A stretch of 64,000 nt of DNA from Patescibacteria group bacterium UBA6164 (GTDB taxonomy: Bacteria > Patescibacteriota > Gracilibacteria > BD1-5 > UBA6164): NCBI GenBank assembly GCA_002422305.1, contig DIUG01000068.1, forward strand, positions 2,811-66,810. Direction: 5' to 3'. Below are positions 33,872 through 60,880 of the stretch, piece by piece (the first letter of the stretch is position 1; the number at the start of each line of letters is the position of its first letter). The translations under genes were made by a program, and so were the position numbers. The notes under the pieces are model-generated. The model did not search any database. It saw nothing but the letters and a program-made list of their open reading frames with translations, and was not told the origin of the DNA.

Positions 33872-33887
33872 TAAATAAATAAAATTA

Positions 33888-34493: not shown

Positions 34494-34542
34494 ATTTTTT
34501 ATTATTTTTAATAATATTTATGAAATTGTATCATATTTTTAT

Positions 34543-34896
34543 ATGTTTTGCAAAAATTATGCTACAAAAAATGCTATGAATGTTTATAGAGAAATGATTT
34601 TAAAATGAAATGGATTTAATAATGATGATATAGATGCACTTATAACTGAAACTAAATGAGAAGTAAGATATAATCTTGTTTTAATAAGAGAAAGACTTAT
34701 GGAAGTGGAGGAGGTTATTGAGAGTGAGGTTTTGCCTGTTTGGAATGAGAATGAAAAAATATTAAATGAATGATTATTAGAAGGAGATAGTATTATAATT
34801 TATAACAACTTTAAAGAAAATATTATAAAAGATATAACAAAATATGATGAATTATCACAAATAATTTTTAGACAATTTATTTTAAAGACCCTTTAG
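34543..34896 (+). CDS. orphan alternative 3' cassette of gene 31961..33871 (117 codons)
   Basis: MFCKNY-ATKNAMNVYREMILKGNGFNNDDIDALITETKGEVRYNLVLIRERLMEVEEVIESEVLPVWN is followed by a different tail. Ends at TAG 34894-34896. Confidence 0.45.
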
Positions 34897-35404
34897 GTAA
34901 ATAATATATATAGATATACATATTAAATCTTGTACTTCATTCAGGAAAAAAAGTATTATCTTTAGGATTAAATAAAACAAATTTTCAATCTTTTTTTATA
35001 ATATGTGAATTTCATATTCTTCTACTAAGTAAATTTGCAAAATCATTATCAAAATCAAAACTTGAAATATCAAATAATGTATTTCAATTTTGGTCTAAAT
35101 AAGATAGTAAATCTCAATTAGATGCAAATAATAAAAATATATTACTATTTGTTACTTTTTCTATTGCTTCTAATTGTCTTTCATAATTTCATCACAACTG
35201 CATAATTTTAATAACAGCACTTTCAAAAAAACATTTTTGTTCAGGATACTTTTCAATAAGTTTTTGTCTCAATTTTTCTACTAAAATCTCTTCATTTAGT
35301 TTTTCTCTTTCTTCTCTACTCCAATTAAAAGTATCTGCTATTTTAGGAGTTTCTTGATTTTGGTTTATTTCACAAGTTTGTGATGAAGTTTCTAAATTTC
35401 ACAT
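34877..35404 (-). CDS. hypothetical protein (175 aa), cassette partner B (paralog of 33888..34493)
   Basis: The N-terminal ~70 aa are nearly identical to partner A (..NLETSSQTCEI.QN.ETP.IADTFNWSREEREKLNEEILVEKLRQKLIEKYPEQKCFFESA) and the C-terminus is unrelated. Overlaps the orphan cassette 3' end by 20 nt. Confidence 0.5.
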
Positions 35405-35515
35405 ATTTTTTATTATTTTAATAATATTTACAAAATTGTATCATATTTTTATATGTTTTGCAAAAATTATAGATTTCATTTTTAACTGAAAATAGAAATA
35501 TAAACAGATAGTAAC

Positions 35516-35541
35516 AAAAAAAGGCATAAATGCCTTTTTTC
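35516..35541. terminator. bidirectional terminator
   Basis: aaaaa-aaggca-taaa-tgcctt-tttt. Confidence 0.65.
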
Positions 35542-35709
35542 TTAAATACCAAATTCATCATCTCACAAAAATCATTCTAATTTATTTTCAAAATTCATCA
35601 ATCATTTTTCACTTAACTCAATTTTCTTTAACTCTATATCTTTTTTTGATACTCATTTTTTAAATTCATTAGATTTCTCTAACTCTTTCTTAATTTTAAT
35701 ATTTTTCAT
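35542..35709 (-). CDS. small charged hypothetical protein (55 aa)
   Basis: ATG at 35709 to TAA 35542-35544. Weak support. Confidence 0.3.
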
Positions 35710-42791: not shown

Positions 42792-42880
42792 ATTACCTAT
42801 TCTTTTTTTGTATAGAATATTTTTTGTCTTACTTTTATATAAACATTTATTACTATAAAAAAAATAACTTATAAAAATAA

Positions 42881-43091
42881 AGTTCTAAAAAAGACTTGCT
42901 TATAGATTAAGTAAGTCTTTTTATTGTATTTAAATGATTTAGTTTGTATTTTTCTTTTTTCTTCTGTAGTACTCCATTGGTTTTCATTGATATTTATAAT
43001 ATTCAATAAAATCTTCTTTATATAGACCATTAATATCATATTCAATAGTTCATTCAAAAAAAGTTCTCAATTCTATTATTGTGCTCCACCA
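42881..43091 (+). repeat. ~212-nt junction repeat R1, ending in the tmRNA 3' core GCTCCACCA
   Basis: Aligns with 49998-50211 and 57097-57309. Has an internal hairpin aagacttgctta/taagtaagtctt and is followed by its own small terminator hairpin (43106-43133). Confidence 0.8.
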
Positions 43092-43153
43092 TTTTTTTAT
43101 TGATTATTAAGCGAAAAAACTCTATATTTTTTAGAGTTTTTTGGTTTTTAAAA

Positions 43154-44101
43154 TTATACATTTTCAATTATTCAATACTTAAACATATTACAATCATATC
43201 TTGGTAATAAATATTTATTATTAATTATATCATCTGTTTTAATATTTCTTGGTTCTACAATAAAAGAATATTTTATATTTGAATTTTCTAATTTTCTAAC
43301 AGTTTCTATATTATATGAATCTTTTCATCAATAAGGATAACAAAAACAATCAATTTCAGAATTAATGATTTTGCTTAAAAAATTATTTGATTCATCAATT
43401 TCATTATTTAACTCATTATAGCTAAAATTAGACAATAAATGATGAGATTCTGCATGTCATCAAATTATATTTCATGCATTTTTAATCTCACTTATTTGAT
43501 TTTCATTTAAATATAATTTTTCCCATATAATATCTATTGGATCTCAAAAAATACTTATTAATTTATCTAAAACTATAGTTTGAGTATCCAAATTTAAAGA
43601 ATAGTTTATTTTTTTTATAATAAGTGAATATTTATCCATTTCTTGTTCAGAATATGCAATTCTATTTTCTATTTTTTTTATTTCAGATTCTAAATTTAAA
43701 TTTTTTAAGATATCTACAAATTTTTCATAAATATTTTTTGAATTAAATCTTCACAATAAATAATGTATTTTATGAACATTTAATATACTTCTATCTCTTA
43801 ATTGCTTAGTTCATACAAAAAATATTCACCATAAATTTCTTTCTTTTAAAATAGGAAGTACATATTTATAATGATCTATTAATCAATCATCAAATGTTAA
43901 TATTATTCAAGTTGGAACATTGGTTTTATTATTTATAAAATTAATCCAATCCTCTTTTCTTACAAATCAAAATTCTTTTTCAAAAAAATCTAACTGTTTT
44001 TTAAAATTATCAATACCTAAATACTTAAGTCATGGTATAAAATCAGAATTAATTCTGATATAATGATACATTATTGCTTTACATCAATTTTTATTATTCA
44101 T
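43154..44101 (-). CDS. polysaccharide deacetylase (NodB/CE4 family)
   Basis: IILTFDDGLIDHYKYVLPILKERNLWGIFFV, GGHAESHH, FCYPYGG. Confidence 0.75.
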
Positions 44102-44105
44102 AAAA

Positions 44106-44666
44106 TTAATTTTTAAATTTTCTTTTAAGTATTCCAGTATTTTTTGATACTCTTTCTGAGGTTACTTTAGATATTGAAGATAATATATCTGGTGCTTTTT
44201 CTCAACAAGTTTGATTAATAAATTCATTCAATGTATCTTGAACAATTTCTTTTCTTGACCAAAAATTAAGTCATCAGCCATCTATATTTAAATTATTAAC
44301 TTTTTTGATATTTTCTCACTTATAAATTGGAATAAGATGAAAGTGAAGATGTTTTGAATTTTCTCAAGAATTTAATGATATAATATTTACTCTATCAATA
44401 TTTACATCACATTTTTTTATTGTTACACATGCTTTATTTAATAATATTCCTAATTCTATAATTACTTCTTGAGGCAATATACAATCACTGATGTCATTAA
44501 TATGTTTACCTATATCATTTATTAATTCTTTTTTTAAAATTAATAAACAATGAAAATCACACAATGGGTTTATACTGTGTACAAATTCCCAATATTTCAA
44601 TGTATTATCAATCTGTTGTTCTTTATTAGGAAATGAACTTTTACAAAATATACAATTTTTTTTCAT
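44106..44666 (-). CDS. HIT-family nucleotide hydrolase/transferase
   Basis: MKKNCIFCK... and the histidine triad HLHFHLIP. Track ORF 44364..44720 is trimmed to ATG 44666 and extended through TGA. Confidence 0.65.
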
Positions 44667-44695
44667 AGTACTTTTATAATATTTAATAATATATT

Positions 44696-45844
44696 CTATT
44701 TCTGAATAGAAGTATTCCAAAATTCTTCTGTCTCAATTATTTTTATAAATCTTTCTGTCTCAATTATTTTTATAAATCTTTCTCATGCTTTTCAATCACC
44801 AAAAGTTAAACATTTAGGATATATTTTATTTTCTTCCCATAATTCATTAATTTTGTTTTTAACTTCATCTGAATCATAGTTAACATTATGAATACTTTCC
44901 CAATTATTTCTATTATTTTGTCTTGTTCATATATTTACAGTCGGTACTCAAAGTGTTGGTGCTTGTCTAACTCAAGCACTAGAATTTCAAACAATACATT
45001 TAGAACTTTTTAATATAGTTAAAAAATCATTAAAAGGAATTGAGTCAAATATTCTATAAGATTCTTTAAATTTCTTATCAATTATATATTTGTTAAAATA
45101 TTTTATAACAATATCAGAACTAGGATCATTATTAGGATATATAAGTATAAATTTTTTATTAGATTGTATTAATCCATCTAAAACATTAATGCAATGTTGC
45201 TCAAAACTTGATGTTTCAGTAGTAACTGAGTGGAAAATAAATATTCAGTATTTTTCAAAAGGTATATCATATTTAATTTTAAGTTCATCTATTTTAGATA
45301 ATTCATCTCAAAACATTACATCAAAATCTGGAGATCATATAGAATATATATTTTCTCTTTTTTCTCACATTATTTCTAACTTGTCAGCAGATTTATCATT
45401 TGCCACAAAATGTACATGTGAAAGTTTAGATATAAAATGTCTAACTGATTCATCAATACTACCTGAAGATTCTCATCATTCTACATGTGCTACAAGAGTA
45501 TTTGTAAAAGATCAAGCAATTACTCAAGCTAATGCTTCAACTCTATCTCCATGAATTACTATTAAATCTGGATTAATTTCATGAATATAGTGAGATAGAT
45601 TTATTATAGTATTTGCTATAACTATTTCCTGCTTTTCTCAAACATGTTGATTTATATTTAGATAAACATTCTGATGATTTTCATCTAAAATCTCTTTGAA
45701 AGTAAATCAATACTTTCAAAGCATATGCATTCAAGTTACAAATACATAACTCTCAAAGCTATAATGTTTATCGACCTCTCTTATTAAAGATCTTATTTTT
45801 CAATAATCAGCTCTCGTTCATGTAAGAAATAAAATTTTCTTCAT
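44696..45844 (-). CDS. neuC: UDP-N-acetylglucosamine 2-epimerase (hydrolysing), NeuC-type
   Basis: [61 protein letters not shown]. Has a C-terminal in-frame 27-bp duplication. Confidence 0.8.
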
Positions 45845-45855
45845 TTTTAGATATC

Positions 45856-46914
45856 TTAATTATTTAAATTAATATCACTATAAGATAAGTGTGTGTCAGT
45901 ACATATATCTTTAGACGATTTTTTTCATAAAATTTTCTCAAACTCTTCTGCTCTTATCTCTCATGTTCCAGGTCTTTTAACCCAAATATTTTCATTTGAA
46001 AATATTTCTCATTTTTTAATATCTTTAATTGTTACGACTGTTGCAAAAGCAAAGTTTATACAAGGTTCTTCTTCTTTTACAGGTCATTTAGATCATCATC
46101 TACATTTTGCAATTATTTTACTTCATTCAATTAATTCTTTTAAATCATTTTTATCCATAGAACATATAATATCAGGTCATATTCTATCCATAGTATCAGT
46201 AAAATGTCTTTCCAATATAGATGCTCCTAAAGCTACAGCTCATAAACATGCATAATTGGAAGTAGTGTGATCAGATAATCATATAACAGCATCTGAAAAT
46301 CTTTCTTCTAACTCATTTAATGCTCATAATCTTACTAATTCTGGAGGAGTTGGGTATACATTAGTACAATGTAACAAAGCATAAGGAATATTAGCATCTC
46401 TAATAATATTTACAGCTTTTTCTATACTATTTAAATCGTTCATTCATGTTGATAATATTATTGGTTTTCAAAAAGATGCTACATGTTTTATTAAAGGATA
46501 GTTATTACATTCTCAACTACCTATTTTATAAGCAGGTATATCAAACTTTTTTAATCTTTCAGCAGCAGCTCTAGAAAAAGGAGTGCTAATAAATATCATT
46601 CACTTTGATTTTACATAATTCATCAATTCATATTCATCATCTTCATTTAAAGCACAAGATTCCATAATTTCATATATAGAAATACTTGCATTTCAAGGAA
46701 TAACTTTTTTAGCACTTGAGCTCATTTCATCTTCAATGATATGTGTTTGATGTTTTATAACCTCTGCTCATGCTTCATATGCAGCATCAACCATTTCTTT
46801 AGCAATTTTTAAAGACCCATTATGGTTAATTCAAATTTCAGCAATAACTAAAGGATCTGATTTTTCAGATATTAATCTGTTTCAAATATAAAAACTAGGT
46901 ATTATTTTATTCAT
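45856..46914 (-). CDS. neuB: N-acetylneuraminate (nonulosonate) synthase
   Basis: [50 protein letters not shown], LSDHT, and a C-terminal SAF-like domain. Confidence 0.85.
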
Positions 46915-46972
46915 AATATTTATATATATTCTAAATTAGATTTATTTATAGTTATTTTTAAATAAAAGTCAA

Positions 46973-47005
46973 CAAAAAAAGGCATTACAAATAAAATGTA
47001 ATACC
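46973..47005 (-). terminator. rho-independent terminator
   Basis: On the minus strand: gguauuaca-uuuuauu-uguaaugcc followed by a U-run. Confidence 0.6.
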
Positions 47006-47022
47006 TCATGAAAATTTAAATA

Positions 47023-47583
47023 TTATATATTTTTAAATATTTTATTTTTTAATTCCTCCTCTTTTCATAAAAATATTTCTCTTAAAACTTCTAAAGCAAA
47101 TTCTTGAACTCTAAACTTTGGATTAGCTACTATACATAAAAAGTCAGACCAATTCATAACTTTTATTTTTATCTTTTCTCAAGCGTCTAAGTTTTGTTCT
47201 TGAATTTTATTACAATTTCTGGCAATAAATATATTGCTTTTATGATCTATTCTAGAAGATCTAGTATAAGATCAAAATAATTCCCAATCATCACTTTTAA
47301 GTCAAGTTTCTTCTAATAATTCTCTTTTAGCAGTTTCAATTGGAGTTTCTCAATCTTCACATGTTCATCCGACTAATCAAAAAAAAGGTTCTCTTCAAGG
47401 ATGTTGTTCTTCAAGAATATAAATATTGTTATTCTTATCTATTGCTACGATATCTACACTATCGTTTCTTTTTAGCTTTTCAAAAACTTTTTTACTTCAA
47501 TCAAACATTTCTTGTTCCCATTGATATACATCAAATGATTTTCAACTAAAAACTTTTTTAGCATTTTCAGGTATTCATGCCAT
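47023..47583 (-). CDS. NUDIX hydrolase
   Basis: Nudix box GGTCEDGETPIETAKRELLEETG. Confidence 0.75.
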
Positions 47584-47643
47584 AATAATAATTTTAAAAA
47601 ATAAGTATTTGAATTATAATAATATTTTTTTTATAATCAAAAT

Positions 47644-48441
47644 TTAAATAAAAGTTTTTTCTGCTTCTAATACAAATTTAACTAACAAATCTCATTTTAA
47701 TTTACGAGCCTTTACTATTGTTCTAATGTACTTTTCTTTCCATGCTTTTTTACTTTGAATAGGATTAAAATTAGGCAATTTTATATCTAATAATTTTAAT
47801 TCAGGAAAAACAGCAATTAATTTATCTAAAAAGAAAAACCATCATAATATAAATTCTTCTTGATTAATTCATTGGTTATGAGGTAAATATAAACCATTTT
47901 GTTCAATATATCATGAAACACTTATATCTAATCAATCTTGATAAAATTGTCCTAAAGAAAATCATTCACGAACTTTTGTTGATGATGTAGAAATTATTGG
48001 ATTTATTTCTACTAATTTTATTCATTTTTTTGCGGAAGTATTATGTGCTCCATCAAGATTCTCAAATTCAGGTCTACAAATCATTCAAAAAGTATCTCAC
48101 GAATTTCAATATATCTCCATTTCACGTATTGCTTTATCAGATCAACAGATGTTTATAACATTCCTTCAATATTTCTTTCTTAAATCTAGTAATTCATCAA
48201 TATGTCATCTTACATTTTGTCTTTGGATATCTATAGGAAGACTATATTGAGCTAGATGTATCCTTATCATTTCTAAACGTTCTTCTAATGAAGCTATTGG
48301 TTCCTTTTCTCAGATAAATTTTACTATTACATATAATTGTGACAAAGTTAAGGTTTCTATAGCACTAATCATAGCACTAATATGACCTTTATGTACAGGA
48401 TCAAAAACTCACCTAATAACTCATATATTTTCGTTTTTCAT
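47644..48441 (-). CDS. cytidylyltransferase-fold nucleotidyltransferase (NadD-like) with C-terminal extension
   Basis: GVFDPVHKGH near the N-terminus and ISSTKVRE. Confidence 0.6.
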
Positions 48442-48518
48442 ACATATATTGATTTTTAATAAATTTTAGTTATTATATAATAAAGTCATAAAAAATCAAT
48501 TATTAATAATAAGTATAA

Positions 48519-49226
48519 ATGATAAATATAAAAAAAATTGCAATTATTCCTGCAAGATGAGGTTCAAAATGAATCCCTAAAAAAAATATTGTAGAATTAT
48601 CTTGAAAACCTTTAGTTAATTATAGTATTGAAGCTGCTATTAAGTCTAAGTGTTTTGATAAAATATGTGTTGCAACAGATTCTTCAGATATAATTAAGGT
48701 TGCTTCCACTTATGATGTTGAAATTATTAGATTACCTAGTGATTTAACTACCGATGAATCTAAAATGATAGATGTTGTTTTATTTGTATTAAATTATTAC
48801 GAAGATAATAATGAAAAATTTAACATTACTATATTATTACAGCCTACTTCACCATTAAGAACATATATTGATATACAAAATGCTTTAAAAGAATATTTAA
48901 ATTTAAATAAATATAATAGTCTAGTTAGTTTTTGTGAAACTAATGAACATCCATATAAAAGTTTCTTGTATAATGATAATGAAATAAAACCAGTTTTCTG
49001 AGAAGAATATATTTCTCTACCTAGACAATTATTACCAAAAACAATACAACAAAATTGAGCAATTTATATAAATAAAGTAGAAGATTTAAGAAAAAATAAA
49101 AGTTTTTTTACTCAACCTGTGTATCCCTTTATAATGGATGAATTATCATCTATTGATATAGATAAAAAACTTGATTTACTATTTGCAGAATTTTGTATAA
49201 ATAACTCCAATAAATATGAAAAATAA
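48519..49226 (+). CDS. neuA: acylneuraminate cytidylyltransferase (CMP-nonulosonate synthetase)
   Basis: IAIIPARGGSKGIPKKN, LLQPTSPLRT. Contains track ORF 48765..49001. Confidence 0.85.
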
Positions 49227-49836
49227 TTTATACTATTCATCATTTATTTTTTTAATATGATGAGCTTTTCAAGGAAAAAGTCTAATTTCTATTAAAATTG
49301 CTGAAAAATATAATTTTTCTGGTGTAATATCAACAGATTTATTTAGAAATATTTTAAGAATTAATAATCCTACGAATGCAATATTATGTTCAACTTCAAA
49401 ATTAAATGATGATATTTTTAATATACAAAGAAAAGAAGTATCAGATTTATTATATAAAACTCTAGATTTTTATGCTGATAGAAAAGAAAAGTTGGTTATT
49501 GAATGAGTACACTTTTCAAAAGATTTCCTAAAGTTTGCTTTGAAAAATTGAGCTAAATGTATTTGTTTAAATAATTCGCTTCCTTGGAGAGATAAAGTAA
49601 ATCTTAAAAAAATAACTACTCCTATAACAAGGGTAATTAATAGAGATACTTTAGAAGAAAATTTTGCTAACCATACAGAAGATTTAAATATAGAGGATAT
49701 TTTCTACACACATAAAGAAAAAGAATATAGTTTAATGCATAACATTATATTATCTGATGTAAAGGAATTAGGTATTAATATTATATCTTATAGTAGTATT
49801 GATGAGGCAATTATTAAAATAAAAGAATTTATTTAA
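49216..49836 (+). CDS. P-loop kinase (2-phosphoglycerate-kinase/zeta-toxin-like fold)
   Basis: Walker A LIGGAFQGKS. Overlaps the neuA stop by 11 nt. Confidence 0.45.
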
Positions 49837-49997
49837 AAAATTATTAACTAATAATTCATAATGATAAACAAATCCATAAAATGATATAACTATTAATAAT
49901 GATTATACTAATTATTCATAATAATTGATAAAAATATATAAATACATTTATTATTTTACATTTATGAAATTGATAAAAATATAATACTAAAAAATAT

Positions 49998-50211
49998 AGT
50001 TCTAAAAAAGACTTGCTTATAGATTAAGTAAGTCTTTTTGTAGTATTTAAATGATTTAGTCTGCATTTTTCTTTTTTCTTCTGTAGTACTCCATTGGTTT
50101 TCATTGATATTTATAATAGTTTGTGAAATCTTCTTTATATAGAGCATTAATATCATACTCAAGGGGGGTTGATTCAAAAAAAGTTCTCAATTCTATTATT
50201 GTGCTCCACCA
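49998..50211 (+). repeat. junction repeat R2
   Basis: Near-identical to R1 over most of its length. Ends in GCTCCACCA at 50203-50211 and is followed by the hairpin ctcaagttttatgatttgag plus a T-run. Confidence 0.8.
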
Positions 50212-50369
50212 TTTTTTATTTATTATTAAGCTAAAAGCTCAAGTTTTATGATTTGAGTTTTTTGTTTTTTCTAAAAAGTTGCATTTCGTGGTAGATTGTA
50301 AGAATTAAAAATTGACAAAAAATTATTTTTTTGTATAAAATTAATAATTTTATTATCTAATTTATTTTT

Positions 50370-51608
50370 ATGATTAAAATACTTGATAACTATTATAAAT
50401 CTATAAACAAAGAAGATTATGAGTTTGTAGAAAGAAAATGAATTTGACATCCTGATACATTATCAGATTTAATAGCTGAAATTTTTGTTATTAATTATTC
50501 AAATTATACAAAATCTAAATATTGATATATTCCAAACCATTGGGTTGATAAAGTTCTTTTATCTGGAGCAAAATCAGAAGTAAAATTTTGAGATTATACA
50601 ATTATAAAACCTATAAGATGTTACTTATTTTGAAAAGTAACCCAAAAGATAGAAAATGAAGATATACCAATTTATTCAATTTTTAAAGATAGTGTATTTC
50701 AAGTTTTCACTAAAATATTTAAAAATTTGGATATATTAAATTATATTGATTTAATAGTTGATATTAATGATTGAATTTGAGTTGGAAGACCAAAAAATTG
50801 GTATCAACCTAAAAATACTCAAGAGGTTCAAGATTCAAACAATAAATTAAGATCAAATGATAGTGTTATTTGTTCTGCTTATTCTCCACTATCTTGACTG
50901 GAAAAAATAGTTATTTTTTTAGAAAATTATATTAATTGATTTAAATTTAAAAATAATTTTCCATTTACTGGATATGATGTAAAAGTACTTGCAAATAGAA
51001 AATTAAATGATATTGATATAACAATTTGTATTCCTTTTTTAGCTAAATTAACACCTAATAAAGAATTTTATTATAAAAATATAGAAATTATTAATACTGA
51101 TTTAAAAAATCAATTAGAAAAATATTTAAAATTAAATAATTTAAATTTTAATCTAAATAACATTTTTATAAATAATCGTGATGAATGAGATATTGTATAT
51201 ATGGTGCCATTTTGATCAGCATTAGATACTTGAGATTATGGAGTAGTTGGTCGTTGAAATAAGTATAATTGAGTAATTTCAATCGTAAGAGAAAGTAATA
51301 TTGAAGCATTTTCTTGAAAAAATCCAATATACCATGGTTGAAAATTATTTAATTATATCGCATGAAAGATTTCAGAAGAAATATATTTACAATTATGATA
51401 TGAGAATTATGTAAATATAGTTGCAAAAGTTTGAGATAATATAGATAATCCACATGAGGTTTTAGTAAAAATAGTTTGAGATGTAAAAGATAATACGAAT
51501 ATAGTTAATGAAATTGTAAATATTAATTTAAAATCAATTACTAATATTCACGAATGACTTTTAAACTATAATCCTATTTTAAGATTTAATCCAAATTTAT
51601 ATGAATAA
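50370..51608 (+). CDS. archaeal-type S-adenosylmethionine synthetase
   Basis: VERKGIGHPDTLSD and ALDTGDYGVVGRGNKYNGVISIVRESNIEAFSGKNPIYHGGKLFN parallel the archaeal MAT blocks ERKGLGHPDS and GDDGSVGRGNRVNGLI...EAASGKNPVNHVGK. Confidence 0.8.
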
Positions 51609-52626
51609 AATTAAAATCTGATTAATTTGAATTTGAAATTGTGCAAAATCAATAGTTGAATGAATACAATACTATAAAGAACATTCTCATAAAGAAGTTT
51701 TTTGATATAAAATTAGCGATATTGATATTGTATGTGCAATTGATATAGGAAAAAATAAAGTTTGAAAAGATTTGAATTTGGCTATTTATGAGTTTCCAAA
51801 TAATGCTTATACTATTAAAAAAGTTGAAAATATTTCATGAGTTAAAGTTATATTATGAAATACATTAGAAGGTGTCTTTGATAAGACAATTCATTTAGTA
51901 AGTCCTATTGATAATATAGAGTTTAATGAATTATTCTTTATTGAAGAAATAAAAAAATCATGAGCAGAAATTTTTATAAATATGCTTCCTACTTGATCTG
52001 ATAAAGCATCTCATTATTATGCAGATTTGATAATTAATAAATTAGGATTATCTTTTATAAATTGAATTCCTTCAAAAATTATAAATTCATGAAAATATCA
52101 TAGTAAAAAATCTGTTTTAGTTTGAGATGATATTAAAAGTCAATTATGAGGTTCTATTCTTAATAGATATATTAACAAAATTTTTAATATAAGAGATAAT
52201 TTATTTTTAGATAAAATGTATCAAATTAATTATGCATGAAATACAGATTTTTTAAACTTAATGTATAGATGAGAAAGTAAACATAAATCTAAAAAAAATG
52301 CTGTTTCAAATTTTGATAATATTCATGTTCCTACGTCCATTAATGTTTCTTATGTAGAAAATATGTGAGATAGAAAGACTTGTAAAATAAATTATGAATG
52401 AAGAAATTTTTGAAATGCTCCTTTTAATATAAAAGTTGAAATGGAAGTTGAAGATAGTCCAAATTTTGCTTGATCTATGCTAGATGTAGTAAGATATGTA
52501 CAAAAGTCATTAGATTTAGAAAATTATTGAATACTTGAAAATGTATCGGCTTTATATATGAAAACTCCACCTAAATCCATTGATGAGGAACTTGCTCTAA
52601 AAAATATAAATAATTTTATTTTTTAA
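51601..52626 (+). CDS. myo-inositol-1-phosphate synthase (short archaeal/bacterial type)
   Basis: N-terminal IGLIGIGNCAKSIVEGIQYY, GDDIKSQLGGS, NYAGNTDF. Overlaps the previous stop by 8 nt. Confidence 0.7.
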
Positions 52627-52637
52627 TTTGTGATAAT

Positions 52638-53922
52638 ATGCAATATAAATCTTTAGAAGAGAAATTAATATTACAAGATAGAGAAAAAAAAGAATTATCA
52701 CAACAAATAGATAATTTAATAATGAGTTATTGATTACAAATTAATTCAATACTAAAAGACAAAGAAGTCTCATGATTCATATCAAGAATAGATAGTGATG
52801 AAAATTATTTATATTTTTATTTAACAAATCAGTATTGAACTCAAAAATTCTTTTTAAGTAAAAATATTTTAAAAGATGATGATATAATACTACTTAAAAA
52901 TTTATTAAATTCTAATGTTTCAATAATTACTCAAGATTGAGAAGTTAAGTGATTAAAAGTAAATTGAATATCTATTAATAATGAATTTATTAATGATAAT
53001 CAAATAGATTTAGTATGACAAGAGGAGCAAAGAAAGAGAAAGTATTATAAAAAATATTAGAAGATACTTTGAAAATAATTGATTTATAGAAATTGAAACA
53101 CCCATTTTATGACCAGTATTTAGTGAATATGCTGATGAAAGTTTTTTAGTTTATGATGAAAAATTAGGATGAGTATATTCTTTACCACAATCACCCCAAG
53201 TTTATAAACAATTATCTATTTTATCTGGAGTTCAAAAATATTTTCAAATTGCTAGATGTTTTAGAAGAGATGCTGATAGTGAATTTAAAAAAATTGAATT
53301 TACTCAAATGGATGTTGAAGTTGCAAATATGGCATCTAAGGATATTAGAAGAATATTAGAAAATTTAGTAAAAGAATTATTTAAATTAAAGTGAATAAAT
53401 TTAGATTGAGATATTCCTGTTTTTACTTATCAAGAAGCAATGAGTAAATTTTGAACAGAAAAACCAATTTTAGAGTGAAAAGATTATTCATTATGTTGGG
53501 TAATTCAGAGCCCTATGTTTGAAATGTCAAATTGAAAAATTCAGCCAAGTCATCACATAGTTTCAAAACCTCTTGAAGAAGATTTAGAATTATTAGAGAA
53601 CAATCCTTTATCTGTTAGATGAGATAATTATGATTTAATCTTTAATTGACAAGAAGTTGCTGGTTGAGATATTAGAATAAATGATCCATTATTACAATAT
53701 AAAATGTTGAAACTTATCTGATACTCAGATGAATATATTGAAGAATATTATTCTTGGTATATAGAAGCATTATCTAATTGATGTCCTCCTCATGGATGAT
53801 TTGCTACTTGAGTAGAAAGGATAGTTACACTATTAAATAAAAATAAAGATATTTCAAAATATATAATGTTTCCAAAATATGCTAATTGAGAACCAATATC
53901 TTGATTTCCTAAAAAAATGTAA
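52638..53922 (+). pseudogene. AspRS-like class II aminoacyl-tRNA-synthetase paralog split by a +1 frameshift
   Basis: The first frame runs 52638-53060 (TAG). The catalytic core reads from 53014 in the +1 frame: IRRYFENNGFIEIETPIL, SPQVYKQ, RCFRRDADSEFKKIEFTQMDVE (motif 2), GCPPHGGFATGVERIVTLL (motif 3). Ends at TAA 53920-53922. Confidence 0.65.
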
Positions 53923-53925
53923 AAT

Positions 53926-54519
53926 ATGAAAAAAATATGAATTGATATAGATGATGTTATGAATGATTTTATTTCATTTATAATTGATGAATTAAATTTT
54001 TATACTTGAAAAAAAATTAAAAATACAGATATTGATTTTTGGCATTTAAATCAAATATGGTGAGTATCTTTTGATGAATTAAAAGATATTTATAAGAAAT
54101 CGGATATTTATAGTAAAGTACCTTTATTACAAGAAAATATAGATATTATTAAAAGGTTAGAAAATAAAAACTATCAAATAATTTTTATAACAAGTAGATT
54201 TTTATATCACGATTACGATACAAAAAATGTAACTAAAATGTTATTTAGAAAGTTTTGATTAGATAATGATATTTATATTTGAATGAATAAGTCCTCTGTT
54301 TGTAAAGAATTATGAATAAATATATTTATAGATGACGCATTATATAATTGCTTGGATGTTAAAAATAATAATGATAATATTGATGTATTTATATTGGATA
54401 AATTGTGGAACTGAGAAAAAGAATTAAAAAGATTAGAAAAAGAATGATTTGATGTTAAAAATATGGATCAAATAAATAGAATTTATTCTCTTAATGATTT
54501 ATTATTATGAATAAATTAG
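53926..54519 (+). CDS. HAD-superfamily 5'(3')-deoxyribonucleotidase-like phosphatase
   Basis: N-terminal IGIDIDDV (DxDx motif) and FIDDA near the C-terminus. Confidence 0.6.
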
Positions 54520-55421
54520 ATATTACAAAATCTCTTTGTGAATTATATTGATTAGATTCTAATGAATTAAAAATAATAAAAGAAAGAAGAAATTGAACTT
54601 TATTATTAAGTGATACAGTAAATTATTATAGAGTAGGATTAATAAATATTTTAGATAAAGAACTATATTATCATTTATTATTTGAAAAGTATTGATTTAA
54701 AGTACCTAAAATCGTGGCTTCTTTTAAACAAGGTAATTTTTTATATATAAAAGAATCAAGTATTTGAAATGAACATTTTTGAAAAAAACTTAACAATAAC
54801 ATATCTAATAAAGATGAATTTGAGTTAGTATTTGAAAATATGTTAAATATTTGTAATGAGTATTTTATTAGACAAAAAAATATATGTGATAAACCTATAA
54901 GTATAGATGAGATTTTAACATCATTTAAAGTTGAATGTTTTTTAAAAGAATTTTTTTTAAACAAAGAATTGTATAATCTTGCAAATGAAATAAAAACTAA
55001 AATAGTTAGTATTTTATGAAGTAATCAATATTGAGAATTAACTCACTGAGATTTCAATCCTTTTAATATTTTAGAGGGCTGAATAATTGATTTTGAAAAT
55101 TCTCTTATATGACCAATAAATACAGATAAATTATCCTTTTTATTCACACAAATTGAGGTACCTAAAAATTGAACTGAATTAAATCAATATTATAAATTAG
55201 ATGTTAATAATCTTGATAAAATCTTAAAAATATTTAATTATTCATGAAATTATGATTATTTGTTTATTTTAAAATTATTTTGGTTGACAGTTAATCTATC
55301 TGATAAACCATTGTTACAACAATATAGAATTAACAATTTTAAAAAATATTGAAATCAATTTTTAATATGATGAACAGTATTAGAGAATTTTATAGATTTT
55401 TATTTATATAATGATAATTAA
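54507..55421 (+). CDS. aminoglycoside/choline-kinase-family (APH-fold) small-molecule kinase
   Basis: LTHGDFNPFNILEGGIIDFENS (the H.D....N...DFE catalytic block). Confidence 0.6.
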
Positions 55422-55432
55422 AAAATTAAAGT

Positions 55433-56011
55433 ATGATAATTTGAATAGAGTGATGAATATGTTCGTGAAAAACAACGATATCAAAATTATTAGCTGAAAA
55501 AATAAATTGAGTTTTTATTGAAGAACATACTCCAAGAATAAAAAATAAAGAGGCATTTAATTTAGATTTTAAATCTGAAACTGACTTCAAAAAAGCATTT
55601 AATTATTTTTTAGATGTTGAATTAGAAAGAAATTTAGATTTAATTAAAAATAAAGTTTATATTTTTGATAGAACTATTTATAGTTTATTATGATTTGCTT
55701 ATGCTAAATGAAAAATTGATAAATTAAATTATTTAAGTACTATTAGTGATAAAGAATATAAAACAAAAATAGGCAAAATAGATTTTATTTTTATTATAAA
55801 AATTGATAATGATACTAGAATTAGCAGATTAGATAATGATATTTTTAGAAAAAATAATACTCCAGAGTTATTTTATAAATATGATTTTAATGAATATAAT
55901 AATTATTATTTAGAAAATATTAATCATAATAAAAAATTTTATATAAACTGAAATGATTCAATAGAAAATATTTTAAATTTTATCTTAAAAACAATATGAA
56001 AAAGTATTTAA
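55433..56011 (+). CDS. deoxynucleoside/nucleotide kinase-like P-loop protein
   Basis: MIIGIEGGICSGKTT Walker A. Confidence 0.6.
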
Positions 56012-57012
56012 ATTTCATTCTATTAAAACCAGATTTATTAAATAGAAACTTAGAAGAATCTGTAAAACAAGAATTAATAAATAAAGGTATTACTATTATG
56101 TATGAATGAAATAAAATCATAGATAATAATGATATTGATTGTTTATATGGTTTTTTAAGAAATAAATCTTTTTTTTCAGTATTAGAAAAAAGTTTAATTC
56201 AAAAAAAAATAATTTATTATGTGGTATTATCAAATTATTCTTTTGATGTTTTTGATAAAATTATTGGGGAAACTGACCCTAGTCATGCCAATAAAGACTC
56301 ATTAAGAAACAAGTTTTGATTATCTATTTTAGAAAACTCTATACATTCGTCTAAAAAACATTTAATTGTAAAAGAAATTAAACATTTTCTTAAAAATAAT
56401 GATTTTGAGCAATTGTTAGAATTAATAAATAATTTTTATTTTGAAAATAAAATAACATTACACTGATGATCAACTTCAGAATATTGTGAAAATAATTTAA
56501 ATTTCTATAATTCTATATTATCAGATTATATAGAATGAGAAGATAGTATTTTATATATTCCATTTGCTTGATATGATAAAGATTGGAATACAGAAAAAAT
56601 TAGTAATAATTTAGAAAAATTTTTATGAAAAAAATACAATGTAATTTTATGAAAAAAATACAATGTAATTTTATGAAATCTAGATAATTTAGATAATCAA
56701 ATTTTATATTCAAAATATATTTATATAAATTGATGAGATTATAAAAAACTATTCAATTATATTTGATATTTAAAAGATAAAAAATATTTATTACATTGAA
56801 AAAATATTATTTGAGTTTCTGCATGAGCAAATATATTATCAAAATATAGTTATTCAAATGATTATAATGAAGTTTTTGAGTGAATTTGATTATTAGATAT
56901 AAAAACTATATGTCACTTTAATTGAGATAGTAAATTAATTGAAATTTTAAAAAATAAATGAGAAAATACTAATATTATCAATTTGAAAGAAAAAGAAATA
57001 GTATCATTATAG
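55996..57012 (+). CDS. nucleoside-diphosphate-kinase-like domain fused to an unknown C-terminal domain (338 aa)
   Basis: FILLKPDLLNR..., DSLRNKFG, ENSIHSSKK (NDK N..H motif). Contains a 24-bp in-frame tandem duplication. Confidence 0.55.
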
Positions 57013-57096
57013 ATAATAATTCATAATGAAATAAATCCATGTAATTTTTCAATCTACTAAAATTATTTATAAGTAAAATTATTATACTAAAATTAT

Positions 57097-57309
57097 AGTT
57101 CTTATATATGTATGCTTATATATAAAACAATAAAAAGAAAAGAAGAATACTAAAAAAACTAGCATTTTTCTTTTTTCTTTTTATAATACTCAAGAGTTTT
57201 TCATTGATATTTGTAATATTCAATAAAATCCTCTTTATATAGAGCATTAATATCATACTCAAGGGTCGATTTAAAAAAAGTTCAAGAGTTCTATTATTGT
57301 GCTCCACCA
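57097..57309 (+). repeat. junction repeat R3 (more diverged 5' half)
   Basis: The 3' half is conserved with R1/R2 (ttttcattgatattt...ctttatatagagcattaatatcatactcaag...ctattattgtGCTCCACCA at 57301-57309). Followed by the hairpin tagcactaaa...tttagtgcta. Confidence 0.75.
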
Positions 57310-57437: not shown

Positions 57438-57480
57438 TGCCTTAAAATATGGAGTTCGACCGAGTTCAAATCTTACAAGG
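57438..57480 (+). other. degenerate remnant of a tmRNA 3' end (T-arm)
   Basis: gcctt...cgaccGAGTTCaAATCTtAC compares with tmRNA gccttccgagacgtGAGTTCgAATCTcAC. The acceptor/CCA part is not conserved. Extra agttcga fragments lie at 57363 and 57452. Confidence 0.45.
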
Positions 57481-57508
57481 TGTAAAACTATTTTTTAATA
57501 AAAAATCT

Positions 57509-59083
57509 ATGTCAGAAGCACAAAAACAATTACTAGAAAAACAACTTTGGAGTATAGCTGATGAGCTAAGATGAAAAATGTCAGCTGATGAATTTAGAGA
57601 TTATATTTTAGGGTTTATTTTTTATAAATATTTATCTGAAAAAATTCAATTAAAAGCAAATAAATTATTACAAGATTGATGAATAAATAAAAAATATAAT
57701 GAATTAAATGAAAAATCTGAATCTGATATTATTGAAGCTATAAAAGAAGAATGTATAGAAGATTTGGGTTATTTTTTAGTACCTTCAGAATTATTTTGTG
57801 AAATAGCAAAAAAGTGAAATAGTACAAGTGAAAAAAATGATACAAATTTCATTCTTGATGATTTACAAAAGATATTAAAAAATATAGAAAGTTCAACTAT
57901 GTGAACAGATAGTGAAGATGATTTTGATGATTTATTTGCCGATTTAGATTTAACTTCTCAAAAATTAGGAAAAACTGCAGAGCAAAAAAATACTCTTGTT
58001 TCAAAAATATTATGACATCTTGATAAGATAGATTTTGCTTTGGAAAATACTCAAATCGATGTTTTGTGAGATGCTTATGAATATCTTATTTGACAATTTG
58101 CAAGTGGAGCTGGGAAAAAAGCAGGAGAATTTTACACACCACAACAAGTTTCAACAATTCTTGCAAAACTAGTAACTAGTTGAAAAAATCAATTAAAATC
58201 AGTTTATGATCCAACTTGTTGAAGTTGAAGTTTACTTTTGAGAGTTGCAAAGCAAGTAAAACAAGTATGAGAGTTTTTTGGTCAAGAAATGAATAGAACT
58301 ACATACAATCTTGCTCGTATGAATATGATTTTACATGATGTAAATTATAGAAATTTTGATATAAAACAAGAAGATACTCTAGAAAATCCACAACATAGAG
58401 ATAATAGATTTGAAGCAATAGTTGCAAATCCTCCTTTTTCTGCTATTTGGAAAGCTGATTCTTTAAAACTTACTGATGATAGATTTAGTCAATATGGAAA
58501 ATTAGCACCAAGTTCAAAAGCTGATTTTGCTTTTATACAACATATGATTTATCAACTTGATGATAATGGTGTCATGGCTGTAGTTGTACCACATTGAGTT
58601 TTGTTTAGATGATGAGCAGAATGACATATAAGAAGATATTTAATAGAAAATAAAAATTATCTTGATACTGTTATCGGTTTACCTGCAAACATATTTTATG
58701 GAACTTCAATTCCTACTTGTATTTTAGTATTTAAAAAATGTAGAGAAAATCCTGAAAATGTGTTTTTTATAGATGCTTCAAATGATTTTGAAAAACAAAA
58801 AAATCAAAATAAACTTAGAGATTCTGATATAGAAAAAATTATAGATACTTATAAAAATAGAAAGCAATTAGAAAAATATTCTCACATTGCCAGTTTAGAA
58901 GAAATAGCAGAAAATGATTATAATCTAAATATTCCTCGTTATGTAGATACTTTTGAAGAAGAAGAGCAAATTGATCTAGATTTAGTTGCAAATAGAATTA
59001 TAGAAATAGAAAAAGAAAGCAAGGAACTTAATGAAAAAATAAAAAATTATTGTGAGGAGTTAGGAATTAAAAGTCCTTTTTAA
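57509..59083 (+). CDS. hsdM: Type I restriction-modification system methyltransferase subunit
   Basis: LWSIADELRG, GAGKKAGEFYTPQQVS, YDPTCGSGSLL, IVANPPFS. Contains track ORFs 58289..58597 and 58760..59083. An in-frame upstream ATG at 57449 is possible but overlaps the tmRNA remnant. Confidence 0.9.
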
Positions 59084-59093
59084 TAATAGAAAT

Positions 59094-59639
59094 ATGATAA
59101 ATAAAATTACATTTAAAGAAGAAGATATAACAATATATGAAGCTAAAAATATTTTAGATATTTATTTTGATTCTAAAAATGAAAATTATAAAAAATGACT
59201 AAAAGAAATTACTCCATTTGAATGATGACCATTTAAGAATTACTTTTATAAACTTATAGCTTATTTCTGAATTAAAAAAGAATTAAAAAATAATAAAAAG
59301 GCTTTTGTTTATAGATTAGCATTGATTACATGAATTACTAAGTCCAATAAAGAATATTTTTATTTAAAATGATTAGTAAATTGAGAATCTAAAGTATTTT
59401 TTTATATATCTAGAAAATCTATTAAATCTAAGAAAAATATTTTTATAGATAAAATGATATCAATTGAAAAATGATTATGAAGACAAGCTATAAACGATTT
59501 ATGTGATTATTATAATATTTACAATATAGTTGTAGAACCTTCAAAATATTGAATTTGATTTTGGGAAAAAATGAAGAAAGAATATAAGTGAAAAATTAAT
59601 ATAACAATAAAAAAAATTAATAATCTATGACACAAATAA
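59094..59639 (+). CDS. hypothetical protein (181 aa) inserted between hsdM and hsdS
   Basis: ATG 59094 to TAA 59637-59639. Overlaps the hsdS start by 13 nt. No recognisable domain. Confidence 0.5.
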
Positions 59640-60880
59640 AATCAAATATTCCGAAAATAAGGTTTAAAGAATTTTCTTGAGAATGGGAGGAAAAGAAAAT
59701 AAATCAAACAAATTTAGAAGTTATTGACTGAGATAGATGAAATAATTATCCAAATTGAGATGATTTTTCTTCTGAATGATATTGTTTATTTATGAATGCT
59801 AAAAATGTAACAAATTGATGATTTGTCTTCAATGAAAAATCATTTATAACAAAAGAAAAAGATGAACAATTAAATAAATGAAAGTTAAAAAGGTGAGATT
59901 TAGTTTTAACTACAAGATGAACAATCTGAAATTTTGCATATTTTGATGATAAAATAAAATTTGATAATTTAAGAATAAATTCTTGAATGGTAATATTAAG
60001 AAATAATAATCAAAATTTATCATCAAATTATATTTATAAATATTTTGATTTTAGTTTATTAAAAAAACAAATTTCAAGAATATCATTTTGAAGTGCTCAA
60101 CCACAACTAACAGTTAAAGATATAAAATCTTTAAATATTTCTTTTCCAACTTTAAAAGAACAACAAAAAATATCTTCTTTTTTATCATCAGTTGATGAAA
60201 AAATAGAAAAAATAAAAGAAAAAAAGAAAAATCTTCTAGATTATAAAAAGTGAGTTATGCAAAAGATTTTTAACCAAGAAATTAGATTTAAAGATGAGAA
60301 TTGAGAAGAGTTTAGAGAATGGGAAAAAAAGAAGTTGGGAGAGATTGTAACTTTTTCAAAATGAAAATGACTTTCAAAAGATGTTATAACTGAAGATTGA
60401 AAAAATAAATGTATTCATTATTGAGAATTATTTACTAAATACTGACCAAAAATTAAAAGTATATTGAGTAATACTAATTTAGAATGAAATTTAATTTTTA
60501 GTGAATGAAATGAAATTTTAATGCCAACTTCTGATGTTACTCCAAATTGATTAGCAACTTGAAGTGCATTATTAGAAAAAAATGTAATTTTATGATGAGA
60601 TATATTGATAATAAAATGAGAAAAATTATATAATTTATTTTTTGCTTATTACATATCTTCTCATAAACAAGATATAATGAAACTTGTTTCTTGAAGTACT
60701 GTATATCACTTATATGGCTCTGATATGAAAAAATTAAAACTTTTTCTTCCAACTTTAAAAGAACAAGAAAAAATCGCAGATTTTTTAAGTGGAATTGATG
60801 AGAAGATTGAAAAAGTAAGTGATGAACTTGGAAAAATTGAAGAGTTTAAGAAAGGTTTGTTGCAGGGGATGTTTGTTTAG
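59627..60880 (+). CDS. hsdS: Type I R-M specificity subunit (two target-recognition domains)
   Basis: The conserved spacer motif is repeated: FPTLKEQQKISSFLSSVDEKIEKIKEKKKNL and LPTLKEQEKIADFLSGIDEKIEKVSDELGKIEEFKKGLLQGMFV. Confidence 0.85.

Follow-up and report, generated by a model that had tools for sequence, protein, structure and literature searches.

In a 64,000-nt stretch of contig DIUG01000068.1 from Patescibacteria group bacterium UBA6164 (hereafter the window), we analysed a block of seven genes at positions 50370–57012 encoding an archaeal-type methionine adenosyltransferase (MAT; S-adenosylmethionine (SAM) synthetase), a myo-inositol-3-phosphate synthase (MIPS) family protein, an aspartyl-tRNA synthetase-like (AspRS-like) protein, a HAD-superfamily phosphatase, an APH/choline-kinase-fold kinase, a P-loop kinase and a fusion of nucleoside diphosphate kinase (NDK) to a peptidase S51 domain. 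The GC content of the window was ~20%, and under translation table 11 the block contained only a few short open reading frames (ORFs). With only TAA and TAG as stops, the window had 83 ORFs of 100 codons or more instead of 26, and TGA made up ~5% of codons. TGA codons in the AspRS-like and MAT genes fell on invariant glycine columns of standard-code homologues (116/250 and 123/168 aligned residues) and never on tryptophan, indicating that the organism uses genetic code 25 (TGA = Gly), as do members of the Gracilibacteria/Absconditabacteria branch of Patescibacteria.

Genes were called with Pfam and NCBIfam profiles on code-25 translations, and PHROG, PDB and PADLOC were also searched. The code-25 ORFs and their domain matches confirmed the seven co-directional, near-touching genes listed in an earlier annotation made from the letters alone (hereafter the original prediction): all of them lay on the + strand, spaced along the operon by −8, +11, +3, −13, +11 and −16 nt (overlaps of 8–16 nt and gaps of 3–11 nt). 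The best σ70-like promoter of the region (TTGACA-18-TAAAAT; 50312–50341, + strand), matching 11 of the 12 consensus positions and identified by that match only, was located ~30 nt 5′ of the MAT gene. The region is a ~6.6-kb single-promoter operon, which together with its ends constitutes a unit at 50212–57309, referred to below as unit C. Comparison of the cassette genes to a 93%-identical copy gave dN/dS values of 0.08–0.31, indicating purifying selection throughout, and the four housekeeping-type enzymes were divergent forms that all scored under the NCBIfam equivalog cutoffs. The order of the seven genes was conserved in relatives, except for six-gene versions without the APH-like gene.

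Copies of the block on other contigs (designated by L numbers) revealed its mobility. The segment 50330–56947 of the window was 92.8% identical to L001–L003, and nothing else in the 64 kb matched their ±10-kb flanks in BLASTN; homology to other cassette copies began at ~50330–50340. In total, the block was found in at least five contexts with unrelated flanks. In the window it lay between two repeats, R2 and R3; in L001 and L003 it was located 3′ of a tyrosine recombinase and a small glyoxalase gene; in L002 the downstream flank was as in L001 and L003 and a type IIG restriction–modification (R-M) system lay upstream; in L014–L016, from a metagenome-assembled genome (MAG) titled ‘Patescibacteria group bacterium’, the low-GC host carried SNase, pseudouridine synthase and deformylase-like neighbours; and in L020/L021 the block adjoined serine hydroxymethyltransferase (SHMT), a penicillin-binding protein (PBP), GidB and a MacB-type transporter. 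A further context was provided by L005, where a copy of 93% identity to the window directly followed the transfer-messenger RNA (tmRNA) gene.

The flanks of the block in L001–L003 and L020 were 36–45% GC, encoded glycine mainly by GGN and contained few in-frame TGA codons. Genes flanking the block in these mid-GC contigs broke up under table 11, indicating that the mid-GC hosts are also TGA-recoded. The block itself in L001–L003 and L020 was 17–23% GC, had a GC content at third codon positions (GC3) of ~0.1 and encoded glycine mostly by TGA; these copies were acquired recently, from a code-25 donor of ~20% GC. In the window, the composition of the block was the same as that of its surroundings, making this lineage a plausible native host. 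Judged from these comparisons, the block has been transferred horizontally as a unit. The contig carrying L002 and L018 (GCA_041859205.1, JBHEKU010000329.1) is titled ‘Ignavibacteria bacterium bin.543’; with its ~43% GC flanks containing in-frame TGA, it probably represents a mis-binned, TGA-recoded Patescibacterium. A phage origin of the block was dropped: no archaeal-type MAT was present among 50,697 phage records, the AspRS-like family was absent from IMG/VR, and the phage MIPS homologue lay in an unrelated cluster. That homologue, a Menderavirus protein of 31% identity (L017, Stenotrophomonas phage Marzo, MZ326868.1, 31545–32795), was found within a 7-deazaguanine DNA-modification cluster (FolE, QueC-like, TGT-like), a context hinting that some members of the MIPS family have functions unrelated to inositol.

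To the left of the block, the window carried a tmRNA gene, ssrA, at 9372–9817 on the + strand (Rfam RF00023, 73.7 bits, E 8.9e-27). The last 9 nt of ssrA, GCTCCACCA (9809–9817), constituted an att core on the attL side; this 9-mer occurred at 9809, 43083, 50203 and 57301 only, always on the + strand, compared to an expectation of 0.004 per strand. The three distal occurrences lay in the repeats R1, R2 and R3, each of which ended on the + strand with GTGCTCCACCA (3 matches, vs none in shuffled sequences); they emerged where a single distant tmRNA repeat closing one island had been sought. A large serine recombinase with Pfam Resolvase and Recombinase domains was encoded on the − strand at 9806–11350 and had the C-terminus ‘...NFAIWWS*’. 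Its WWS codons and stop overlapped the 3′ end of the tmRNA gene, WWS being the reverse complement of the 9-mer. A second large serine recombinase (11326–13020, − strand) was located after ssrA and the first recombinase.

The original prediction had placed the set between R2 and R3, and this bracket proved real, the two repeats forming a three-copy family with R1. R1 (42858–43097, − strand), which closes a 33-kb island A, contained a terminator hairpin, the recombinase-tail frame and the core GTGCTCCACCA at 43081–43091. R2, left of the cassette (49975–50217, − strand), had the hairpin at 50005–50039, the tail frame at 50059–50211 on the minus strand and the core at 50201–50211. R3, right of the cassette (57166–57309, − strand), had its core at 57299–57309, followed by the hairpin, and its tail frame was degraded by an indel and had no start. 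The three copies were 80–90% identical (R2 to R1, 81–90%) and spaced by 7117 and 7100 bp. The minus-strand frame of R opened with WWS and ran ~45 codons to a stop followed by the terminator hairpin, and the copies differed by synonymous changes in this frame. Only one protein among 1.84 billion representatives, the 79-aa P0264, matched the R frame. A chimera of the recombinase C-terminus and the R2 tail aligned colinearly with P0264 (score 202, compared to a mean of 32 and a maximum of 69 in shuffles), and the recombinase part taken alone also matched it at p ~0.002. This colinear alignment indicated that the recombinase ORF spans the att site and that R consists of its displaced 3′ tail plus the core; R1–R3 are each attR-type junctions. 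R as a stand-alone small gene or RNA was dropped, since Rfam returned nothing, R3 has no start, and a recombinase tail with an att core explains R. No further R was found by exact-pattern scans of the metagenome and viral collections.

The left end of unit C, immediately after the core, was formed by an AT-rich conserved stretch and a terminator-like hairpin (50212–50262, + strand). The same ~30-nt stretch and hairpin followed the R1 core and were thereby common to units B and C, unit B being the segment between R1 and R2; they also followed the genuine ssrA in L005. The L005 contig opened with the tmRNA 3′ end (Rfam E 1.2e-13) and its homology to the window started exactly at the core, so that unit C sits directly at ssrA in this independent strain. 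The order in the window was ssrA (attL), island A (33 kb), R1, unit B (7.1 kb), R2, unit C, R3 and a type I R-M system, and units B and C encoded no recombinase (Pfam/NCBIfam scans of the unit C proteins).

Integrative elements and recombinase-less cis-mobilisable islands of the CIME/IME type (cis-mobilisable elements and integrative and mobilisable elements) are known to accrete in tandem at tRNA and tmRNA genes. The arrangement in the window resembles such accretion in several respects: direct repeats of the ssrA 3′ end bound successive units downstream, island A carries the recombinases whereas B and C are equally bounded and contain cargo only, and a cargo unit abuts ssrA in another strain. 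It differs in having large serine recombinases instead of tyrosine integrases, in a core common to the units of only 9–11 nt, in a recombinase ORF that crosses the att core so that R carries the displaced 3′ tail, and in the near-equal size of the two cargo units (7117 and 7100 bp).

A second kind of capture was suggested by the copies in L001–L003. There, the block was bounded by attC-like sites composed of an inverse core RYYYAAC, an imperfect palindrome and a core GTTRRRY (0 in shuffled sequences; hairpin z −2.1 to −4.5). L001 and L002 had different upstream cassettes and sites and were identical from GTTAGAC on. As in integrons, the block of this ~43% GC host lay 3′ of a divergently oriented tyrosine recombinase with a small cassette next to it, and the preceding cassette varied by strain. 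The array spanned 3893–12640 in L001 and 405–11481 in L002, with a glyoxalase gene in one strain and a type IIG R-M system in the other. Unlike a typical integron cassette, which carries a single promoterless ORF, the block is ~7.1 kb long with 6–7 genes and its own promoter. The L001 recombinase scored just under both family cutoffs (216.8 bits vs 220 for the NCBIfam XerA-type recombinase/integron integrase, and 188.4 vs 265 for TIGR02249), and no attC-like site was found in the window, L014 or L020. The surroundings of the block in L001–L003 look like an integron-type array, strict membership of which is not established. The literature searched contained no report of integrons in the TGA-recoded Patescibacteria group.

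The AspRS-like gene was broken in this strain, a feature overlooked in the original prediction. Compared to four other cassette copies, a 53-bp deletion at 53027/53028 (+ strand), flanked by AAAGAA microhomology, took out the hinge RYKYIHYRQ and shifted the frame. The frameshift separated the N-terminal part (52638–53060, + strand), predicted to form a helix and a diverged oligonucleotide-binding (OB) fold and having no Pfam match, PF01336 (OB) included, from the class II catalytic core (53014–53922, + strand; PF00152, 9.1e-72), which remained open in the +1 frame. A start-codon scan of the core frame found no ATG, GTG or TTG upstream of 53308, that is, until past motifs 1 and 2. The split-gene sequence also contained no canonical start, recognisable slippery site or use of a Shine–Dalgarno sequence that would allow programmed frameshifting or an alternative start, and this strain probably makes no functional enzyme from the split core. 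The deletion allele was found in ENA, in JGI and in three Logan assemblies (at least five datasets) with DNA 100% identical to the window, and the truncated product is on record in those datasets as a 204-aa protein, indicating that the deletion is a real and established allele. In all relatives the gene was intact and encoded 431–445 aa. The dN/dS of the core against the 93%-identical copy was still 0.084, so that the loss is recent, and the deletion allele shows that the AspRS-like gene is dispensable in this strain.

The catalytic core kept the aspartate and ATP motifs in the alignment (QSPQxYKQ, the motif 2 and 3 arginines, HH and GGDIRI). Its best NCBIfam match was bacterial aspS, in two stretches skipping the GAD insertion, with a score of 277.2 bits that fell under the equivalog cutoff of 373.85; bacterial aspS ranked far above genX and asnA. 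The GAD insertion is missing from the AspRS-like protein, as is normal in Patescibacteria, and its domain order is the same as in the GAD-less AspRS (~460 aa) typical of these candidate phyla radiation (CPR) bacteria. An AlphaFold2 (AF2) model of the intact relative P0001 (overall predicted local distance difference test score, pLDDT, 70.6) showed a helix, then a β1-β2-β3-α-β4-β5 OB topology (pLDDT 58–84) and then the class II core, the OB fold being shortened. Foldseek searches with this model placed bacterial AspRS structures on top, with full-length alignment and 2e-28 to Thermus thermophilus AspRS. From the model, the protein is predicted to have the full AspRS architecture of OB fold plus core. 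It differs from canonical AspRS in the flipping loop (SEYADESFLVYDE, canonical PEGARDFLVPSR), in the motif-2 loop (RDADSEFKKI vs DEDxRxDRQP), in a truncated C-terminus and short OB domain, and in an extra N-terminal helix. The N-terminal domain evolved fast (dN/dS 0.58) and, at 40–42% identity, was the least conserved part of the cassette.

Close relatives of the AspRS-like family formed only 4 clusters among 5.8 billion proteins (49–84% identity), and the next matches were ordinary AspRS with ~40% identity over the core. As a family DNA pattern we used the motif-2 stretch YFQIARCFRRDAD, which matches every known member. It occurred in 2 of the 185,579 genomes that represent species and in no viral (IMG/VR) or metagenome contig; the metagenome collection is incomplete in this respect, since a JGI contig is known. 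The knockout allele, the rarity of the family and the recent arrival of the block in two mid-GC hosts, which must have possessed an AspRS beforehand, lead us to infer that the AspRS-like gene is not the only housekeeping copy in the genomes concerned.

The MAT gene (50370–51608, + strand) encoded 412 aa matching PF01941 over residues 2–399 (3.9e-79). Its best NCBIfam score, 308.6 bits, did not reach the cutoff of 481 (family PF01941/PRK04439), its dN/dS was 0.16, and its nearest non-cassette homologues were 40–51% identical; archaeal-type MATs at this identity are common in uncultured bacteria. The literature searched contained nothing relevant on archaeal-type MAT in CPR bacteria or on this gene combination. 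The MIPS-family protein (51601–52626, + strand; 341 aa; PF01658, 2.3e-19; dN/dS 0.12) aligned end to end, over residues 3–340, with Ino1 of Mycobacterium tuberculosis (1gr0, 9.6e-51), and the GDDIKSQ, NxAGNTDF and DSPN motifs were common to both. Its score of 185.8 bits compared to a TIGR03450 cutoff of 638, and the second-best PDB match was a synthase of a five-membered cyclitol phosphate, leaving the substrate uncertain.

The HAD-superfamily phosphatase (53926–54519, + strand; 197 aa) was 5′(3′)-nucleotidase-like. Its NT5C score of 20.0 bits (6.8e-4) was under the gathering threshold of 24.8 and it had no sequence match in PDB; the assignment is supported by a DxDxV motif I (DIDDV) and a match to phrog_420 (2.1e-13). 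The adjacent APH/choline-kinase-fold protein (54507–55421, + strand; 304 aa), a putative small-molecule kinase, matched Pfam APH at 0.0039, also under the cutoff (17.4 vs 23.2), and its AF2 model had a pLDDT of 35. Its HGDFNPFN and IIDFE motifs were invariant in the family alignment, including P0123, a 28%-identical fusion. P0123 (L006, 2634–3962) was the only distant homologue of the APH-like protein; it carried an N-terminal P-loop kinase (AAA_33/KTI12-like), mirroring the adjacency of the APH-like and P-loop kinase genes in the cassette, and its gene adjoined a Nudix gene. The APH-like gene was optional, being missing from the six-gene versions of the block in L007/L008, L014–L016 and L020.

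The P-loop kinase (55433–56011, + strand; 192 aa) resembled dNMP (thymidylate) and deoxynucleoside kinases, with matches to Thymidylate_kin (3.4e-8) and dNK (1.3e-7) that were both above cutoff and a match to the phage thymidylate kinase family phrog_761 (2.5e-14). The last gene (55996–57012, + strand) encoded the fusion of NDK (~aa 1–140; PF00334, 1.3e-18) to peptidase S51 (~aa 150–338; PF03575, 3.5e-13, above cutoff). The histidine of ‘NSIHSS’ in the NDK part aligned with the catalytic histidine of ‘NVIHAS’ in solved NDKs, and the S51 domain, a putative hydrolase, contained GVSAGANI, a GxSAG nucleophile motif common to the L004 and L022 homologues. A 24-nt perfect in-frame tandem duplication (56621–56668; GKKYNVIL twice) in the S51 domain was found in this strain only. 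In L001–L003, one extra A in an A-run produced a 518-aa triple-domain ORF (L001, 10775–12331), in which an out-of-frame linker of 20 aa connects the P-loop kinase with NDK-S51; the two-gene form of the window, L005, L007, L014 and L020 is the native arrangement.

Taken together, the block is probably an accessory, horizontally mobile module that circulates among TGA=Gly Patescibacteria and carries a bundle of stand-alone supply enzymes. MAT would convert methionine and ATP to SAM, MIPS would convert glucose-6-phosphate to inositol-3-phosphate, and the diverged, GAD-less bacterial-type AspRS would activate aspartate and probably charge tRNA-Asp. The 5′-nucleotidase-like HAD phosphatase, the optional APH-fold kinase, the dNMP/deoxynucleoside kinase and the NDK fused to an S51 (PepE/cyanophycinase-type) hydrolase would complete the cargo, which together may supplement the SAM, NTP, dNTP and inositol phosphate pools of a host with minimal metabolism, along with its supply of charged or activated aspartate. 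The operon is one of three units lined up 3′ of ssrA, each ending in an attR-type junction left by an ssrA-targeting serine-recombinase element, and unit C may be mobilised in trans by the recombinase. Both the enzymatic activities and the view that the enzymes act independently rather than in one pathway are predictions. The original prediction had proposed a salvage toolkit for nucleotides and SAM delivered as a mobile cassette: the mobility was borne out by the contexts, by two compositional islands and by the att flanks, and salvage is plausible, given the annotations and the neighbourhoods of related genes in standard-code Patescibacteria.

These neighbourhoods showed loose, recurring associations. 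In a standard-code Patescibacteria MAG, MAT overlapped a free-standing S51 gene that belongs to the subfamily of the cassette S51 (36% identity, 7e-20), and this pair was followed by a GluRS-type aminoacyl-tRNA synthetase (aaRS), a pyrophosphatase, Ham1 and Nudix among ordinary housekeeping genes. The likeness to the cassette lies in the operonic MAT and S51, the adjacent aaRS and the nearby nucleotide-pool enzymes; the differences lie in the standard code, the class I aaRS, the lack of MIPS, NDK and dNMP kinase, and the lack of any sign of mobility. Among the standard-code loci L022–L028, other MAT homologues adjoined MetRS- or TyrRS/TrpRS-type aaRS genes, radical-SAM/SPASM genes or MmeI-type IIG R-M genes. 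In the distant relative L004, an S51-only gene came directly after the AspRS-like gene (Pfam 4e-10 and phmmer 3e-14 for S51), and the rest of the neighbourhood differed. Pfam and phmmer gave no support to HAD-like or NDK-like assignments of the L004 neighbours, and only the S51 link stands. A bundle of independent enzymes is favoured by these loose recurring associations, by the optional APH-like gene and by the intact cassette around a dead ligase.

Several observations weigh against this interpretation. Additional aspS, metK, ndk and tmk genes in the carrier genomes are predicted rather than observed. The AspRS-like core was the most conserved part of the block (80–83%, compared to 71% for MAT and 50% for NDK), as expected of an essential or key pathway enzyme, and with the altered flipping and motif-2 loops and the short, fast-evolving OB domain, tRNA charging is not assured. 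No excised circle or recombinase action on R has been seen, and units B and C may be what is left of decayed elements instead of mobilisable units. Strict colinearity over 50–80% protein divergence, together with the AspRS-like/S51 pairing even in L004, could reflect a single pathway, and the core-type genes flanking the block in L014 and L020 (pseudouridine synthase, deformylase-like, SHMT, PBP, GidB) would fit a resident housekeeping operon in some lineages. The single-pathway explanation, in which the AspRS paralogue activates aspartate, the S51 protein is an aspartyl hydrolase or transferase and the other enzymes build or tailor the acceptor of a dedicated aspartyl-, inositol- or nucleotide-containing small molecule or surface modification, is in our view unlikely. 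It draws on the translational coupling of the strictly ordered genes over this large divergence, on the rarity of the AspRS-like protein and its alterations where canonical AspRS contacts tRNA along with a poorly constrained OB domain, on the P0123 fusion that mirrors the cassette adjacency, and on L004, where the AspRS-like and S51 genes adjoin each other at a locus that has a family 2 glycosyltransferase (GT2) and lacks MAT and MIPS. S51 enzymes such as PepE and cyanophycinase are Asp-specific peptidases, which would suit such chemistry. Non-translational aaRS paralogues are known (MshC of mycothiol synthesis, AsnA, EpmA/GenX and the fungal AspRS-DUF2156 fusion ErdS), and the AspRS-like protein resembles them in being a diverged class II enzyme away from translation-gene context that adjoins small-molecule enzymes and keeps its Asp and ATP motifs. 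It differs from AsnA and EpmA in its predicted possession of both AspRS domains and from MshC in its class, and no DUF2156, MprF or Fem-type transferase accompanies it; the full two-domain architecture predicted by the model argues against a pathway-specific role. A dedicated pathway is also difficult to reconcile with a ligase that is dead here while the other six genes are intact and the strain is abundant in several datasets, with the dispensability of the APH-like gene, and with the lack in the block of any transferase, transporter, carrier protein or regulator typical of biosynthetic clusters (Pfam/NCBIfam). In addition, this S51 subfamily shares an operon with MAT and a class I aaRS in the standard-code Patescibacterium, amid ordinary housekeeping genes. 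The aminoacyl-inositol or mycothiol-like variant suggested in the original prediction was abandoned: the block has only MIPS in common with that MshA–D pathway and contains no glycosyltransferase, deacetylase or GNAT protein (no MshA-, MshB- or MshD-like genes), its ligase is class II rather than a class I CysRS-like MshC and is knocked out, and the APH-like gene is missing in several versions. As a speculation to which we attach only a small probability, AspRS-like/S51 may form, instead of a translation enzyme and a peptidase, a two-component aspartyl-transfer system: the AspRS paralogue would produce Asp-AMP or Asp-tRNA, and the S51 domain, a Ser-His hydrolase fold with specificity for N-terminal Asp, would pass the aspartyl group to a nucleotide-, inositol- or glycan-type acceptor made by the kinases, phosphatase, MIPS and MAT of the block (in L004 involving the GT2). 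The system would be carried on ~7.1-kb recombinase-less satellite islands that hijack the ssrA-targeting serine recombinase and are also captured as integron-type cassettes in TGA-recoded Patescibacteria.

The genes could instead encode backup iso-enzymes for co-travelling defence islands, either inhibitor-resistant MetK, AspRS, Tmk and NDK or a SAM and nucleotide supply for neighbouring R-M systems. The location of the block in a defence-rich accessory region of >50 kb directly upstream of a type I R-M system, its position after the type IIG R-M cassette in L002, the archaeal-type MAT homologue directly after an MmeI-type IIG enzyme in L027/L028 and the divergence of all four housekeeping-type enzymes are compatible with this role. 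We nevertheless consider it improbable: R-M adjacency is expected by chance in variable regions, the neighbours in L014 and L020 are not defence genes, the family is not on viral contigs, and MIPS would be left without a role. PADLOC-DB 2.0 returned weak generic kinase matches only (VakA, 2.8e-6, and PDC-M51B for the P-loop kinase) and none for the other seven proteins scanned, and a known anti-phage defence system was rejected on this essentially negative result. Finally, every enzyme type in the block has a housekeeping function, the composition of the block equals that of the genome in the window, and the L014 and L020 flanks are of core type, as would be seen in an ordinary, vertically inherited sole-copy cluster with repeats and differing flanks produced by local rearrangement only. 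Such a cluster is very improbable in view of the stable AspRS-like knockout allele, the ~20% GC, TGA-rich island in two different mid-GC hosts, the unrelated contexts at up to 93% DNA identity, the occurrence of the AspRS-like family in so few species genomes, and the att-type junctions bounding the block. With regard to the alternative considered in the original prediction, that these genes are the only housekeeping copies in conserved synteny, the flanking synteny was not conserved, and a sole-copy status is contradicted by the inference drawn above for the AspRS-like gene.

The mobility of the accessory module favoured here is of known kinds, an att-bounded ssrA island and an integron-like cassette. 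Unusual are the seven-gene housekeeping-type cargo, including an aaRS, confined to the code-25 pool, the recombinase ORF that crosses its att site, the two units of equal size that lack a recombinase, and the naturally inactivated aaRS. CPR bacteria have a minimal metabolism and depend on hosts, and their gain and loss of core functions are poorly understood. Here a housekeeping-type operon including an aaRS behaves as mobile cargo between TGA-recoded lineages more than 20% apart in GC, which suggests that supply functions are tradable as cassettes within the code-25 gene pool; the heavy use of TGA for glycine would block the function of the cassette in standard-code organisms. In addition, the window offers a clear case in nature of a serine recombinase ORF reading across its own att site, and a rare AspRS family with a natural knockout allele makes the distinction between an essential enzyme and a paralogue directly testable.

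The regions next to unit C carried other accessory genes. Between the recombinases and R1, island A (13365–42300) contained defence and accessory genes, among them a metallophosphatase, a C5-cytosine methyltransferase with a second methyltransferase domain (822 aa), an Mrr_cat+nSTAND3 protein, an S24 LexA-like protein, a DUF2779 protein, a 1222-aa STAND-like NTPase and an SF1 helicase (AAA_11/AAA_12), together with several large ORFs without a Pfam match. Within it, at 33590–35470, two pairs of duplicated segments ~0.9 kb apart (87–91% identity) corresponded to paralogous small genes at 33888–34493 and 34877–35575 (− strand), just after a 636-aa ORF (31961–33871), and could be a toxin/immunity-type array. 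Unit B (43092–50211), with the same R/core ends as unit C and a near-equal size (7117 bp, compared to 7100 bp), encoded a polysaccharide deacetylase, a NeuC-type UDP-GlcNAc 2-epimerase, NeuB, a Nudix protein, a cytidylyltransferase-like protein, a PseF/NeuA-like CMP-sugar synthetase and a P-loop protein, a predicted nonulosonic-acid (sialic-acid-like) sugar cluster. To the right of R3, the type I R-M system consisted of hsdM (57449–59083) and hsdS (59627–60880) with a 181-aa ORF between them, and no hsdR was found between 57449 and the window end (64000). Downstream from hsdS were genes for a 442-aa tetratricopeptide repeat (TPR)-like protein, a 172-aa ORF and a Fic-domain protein (63020 onward).

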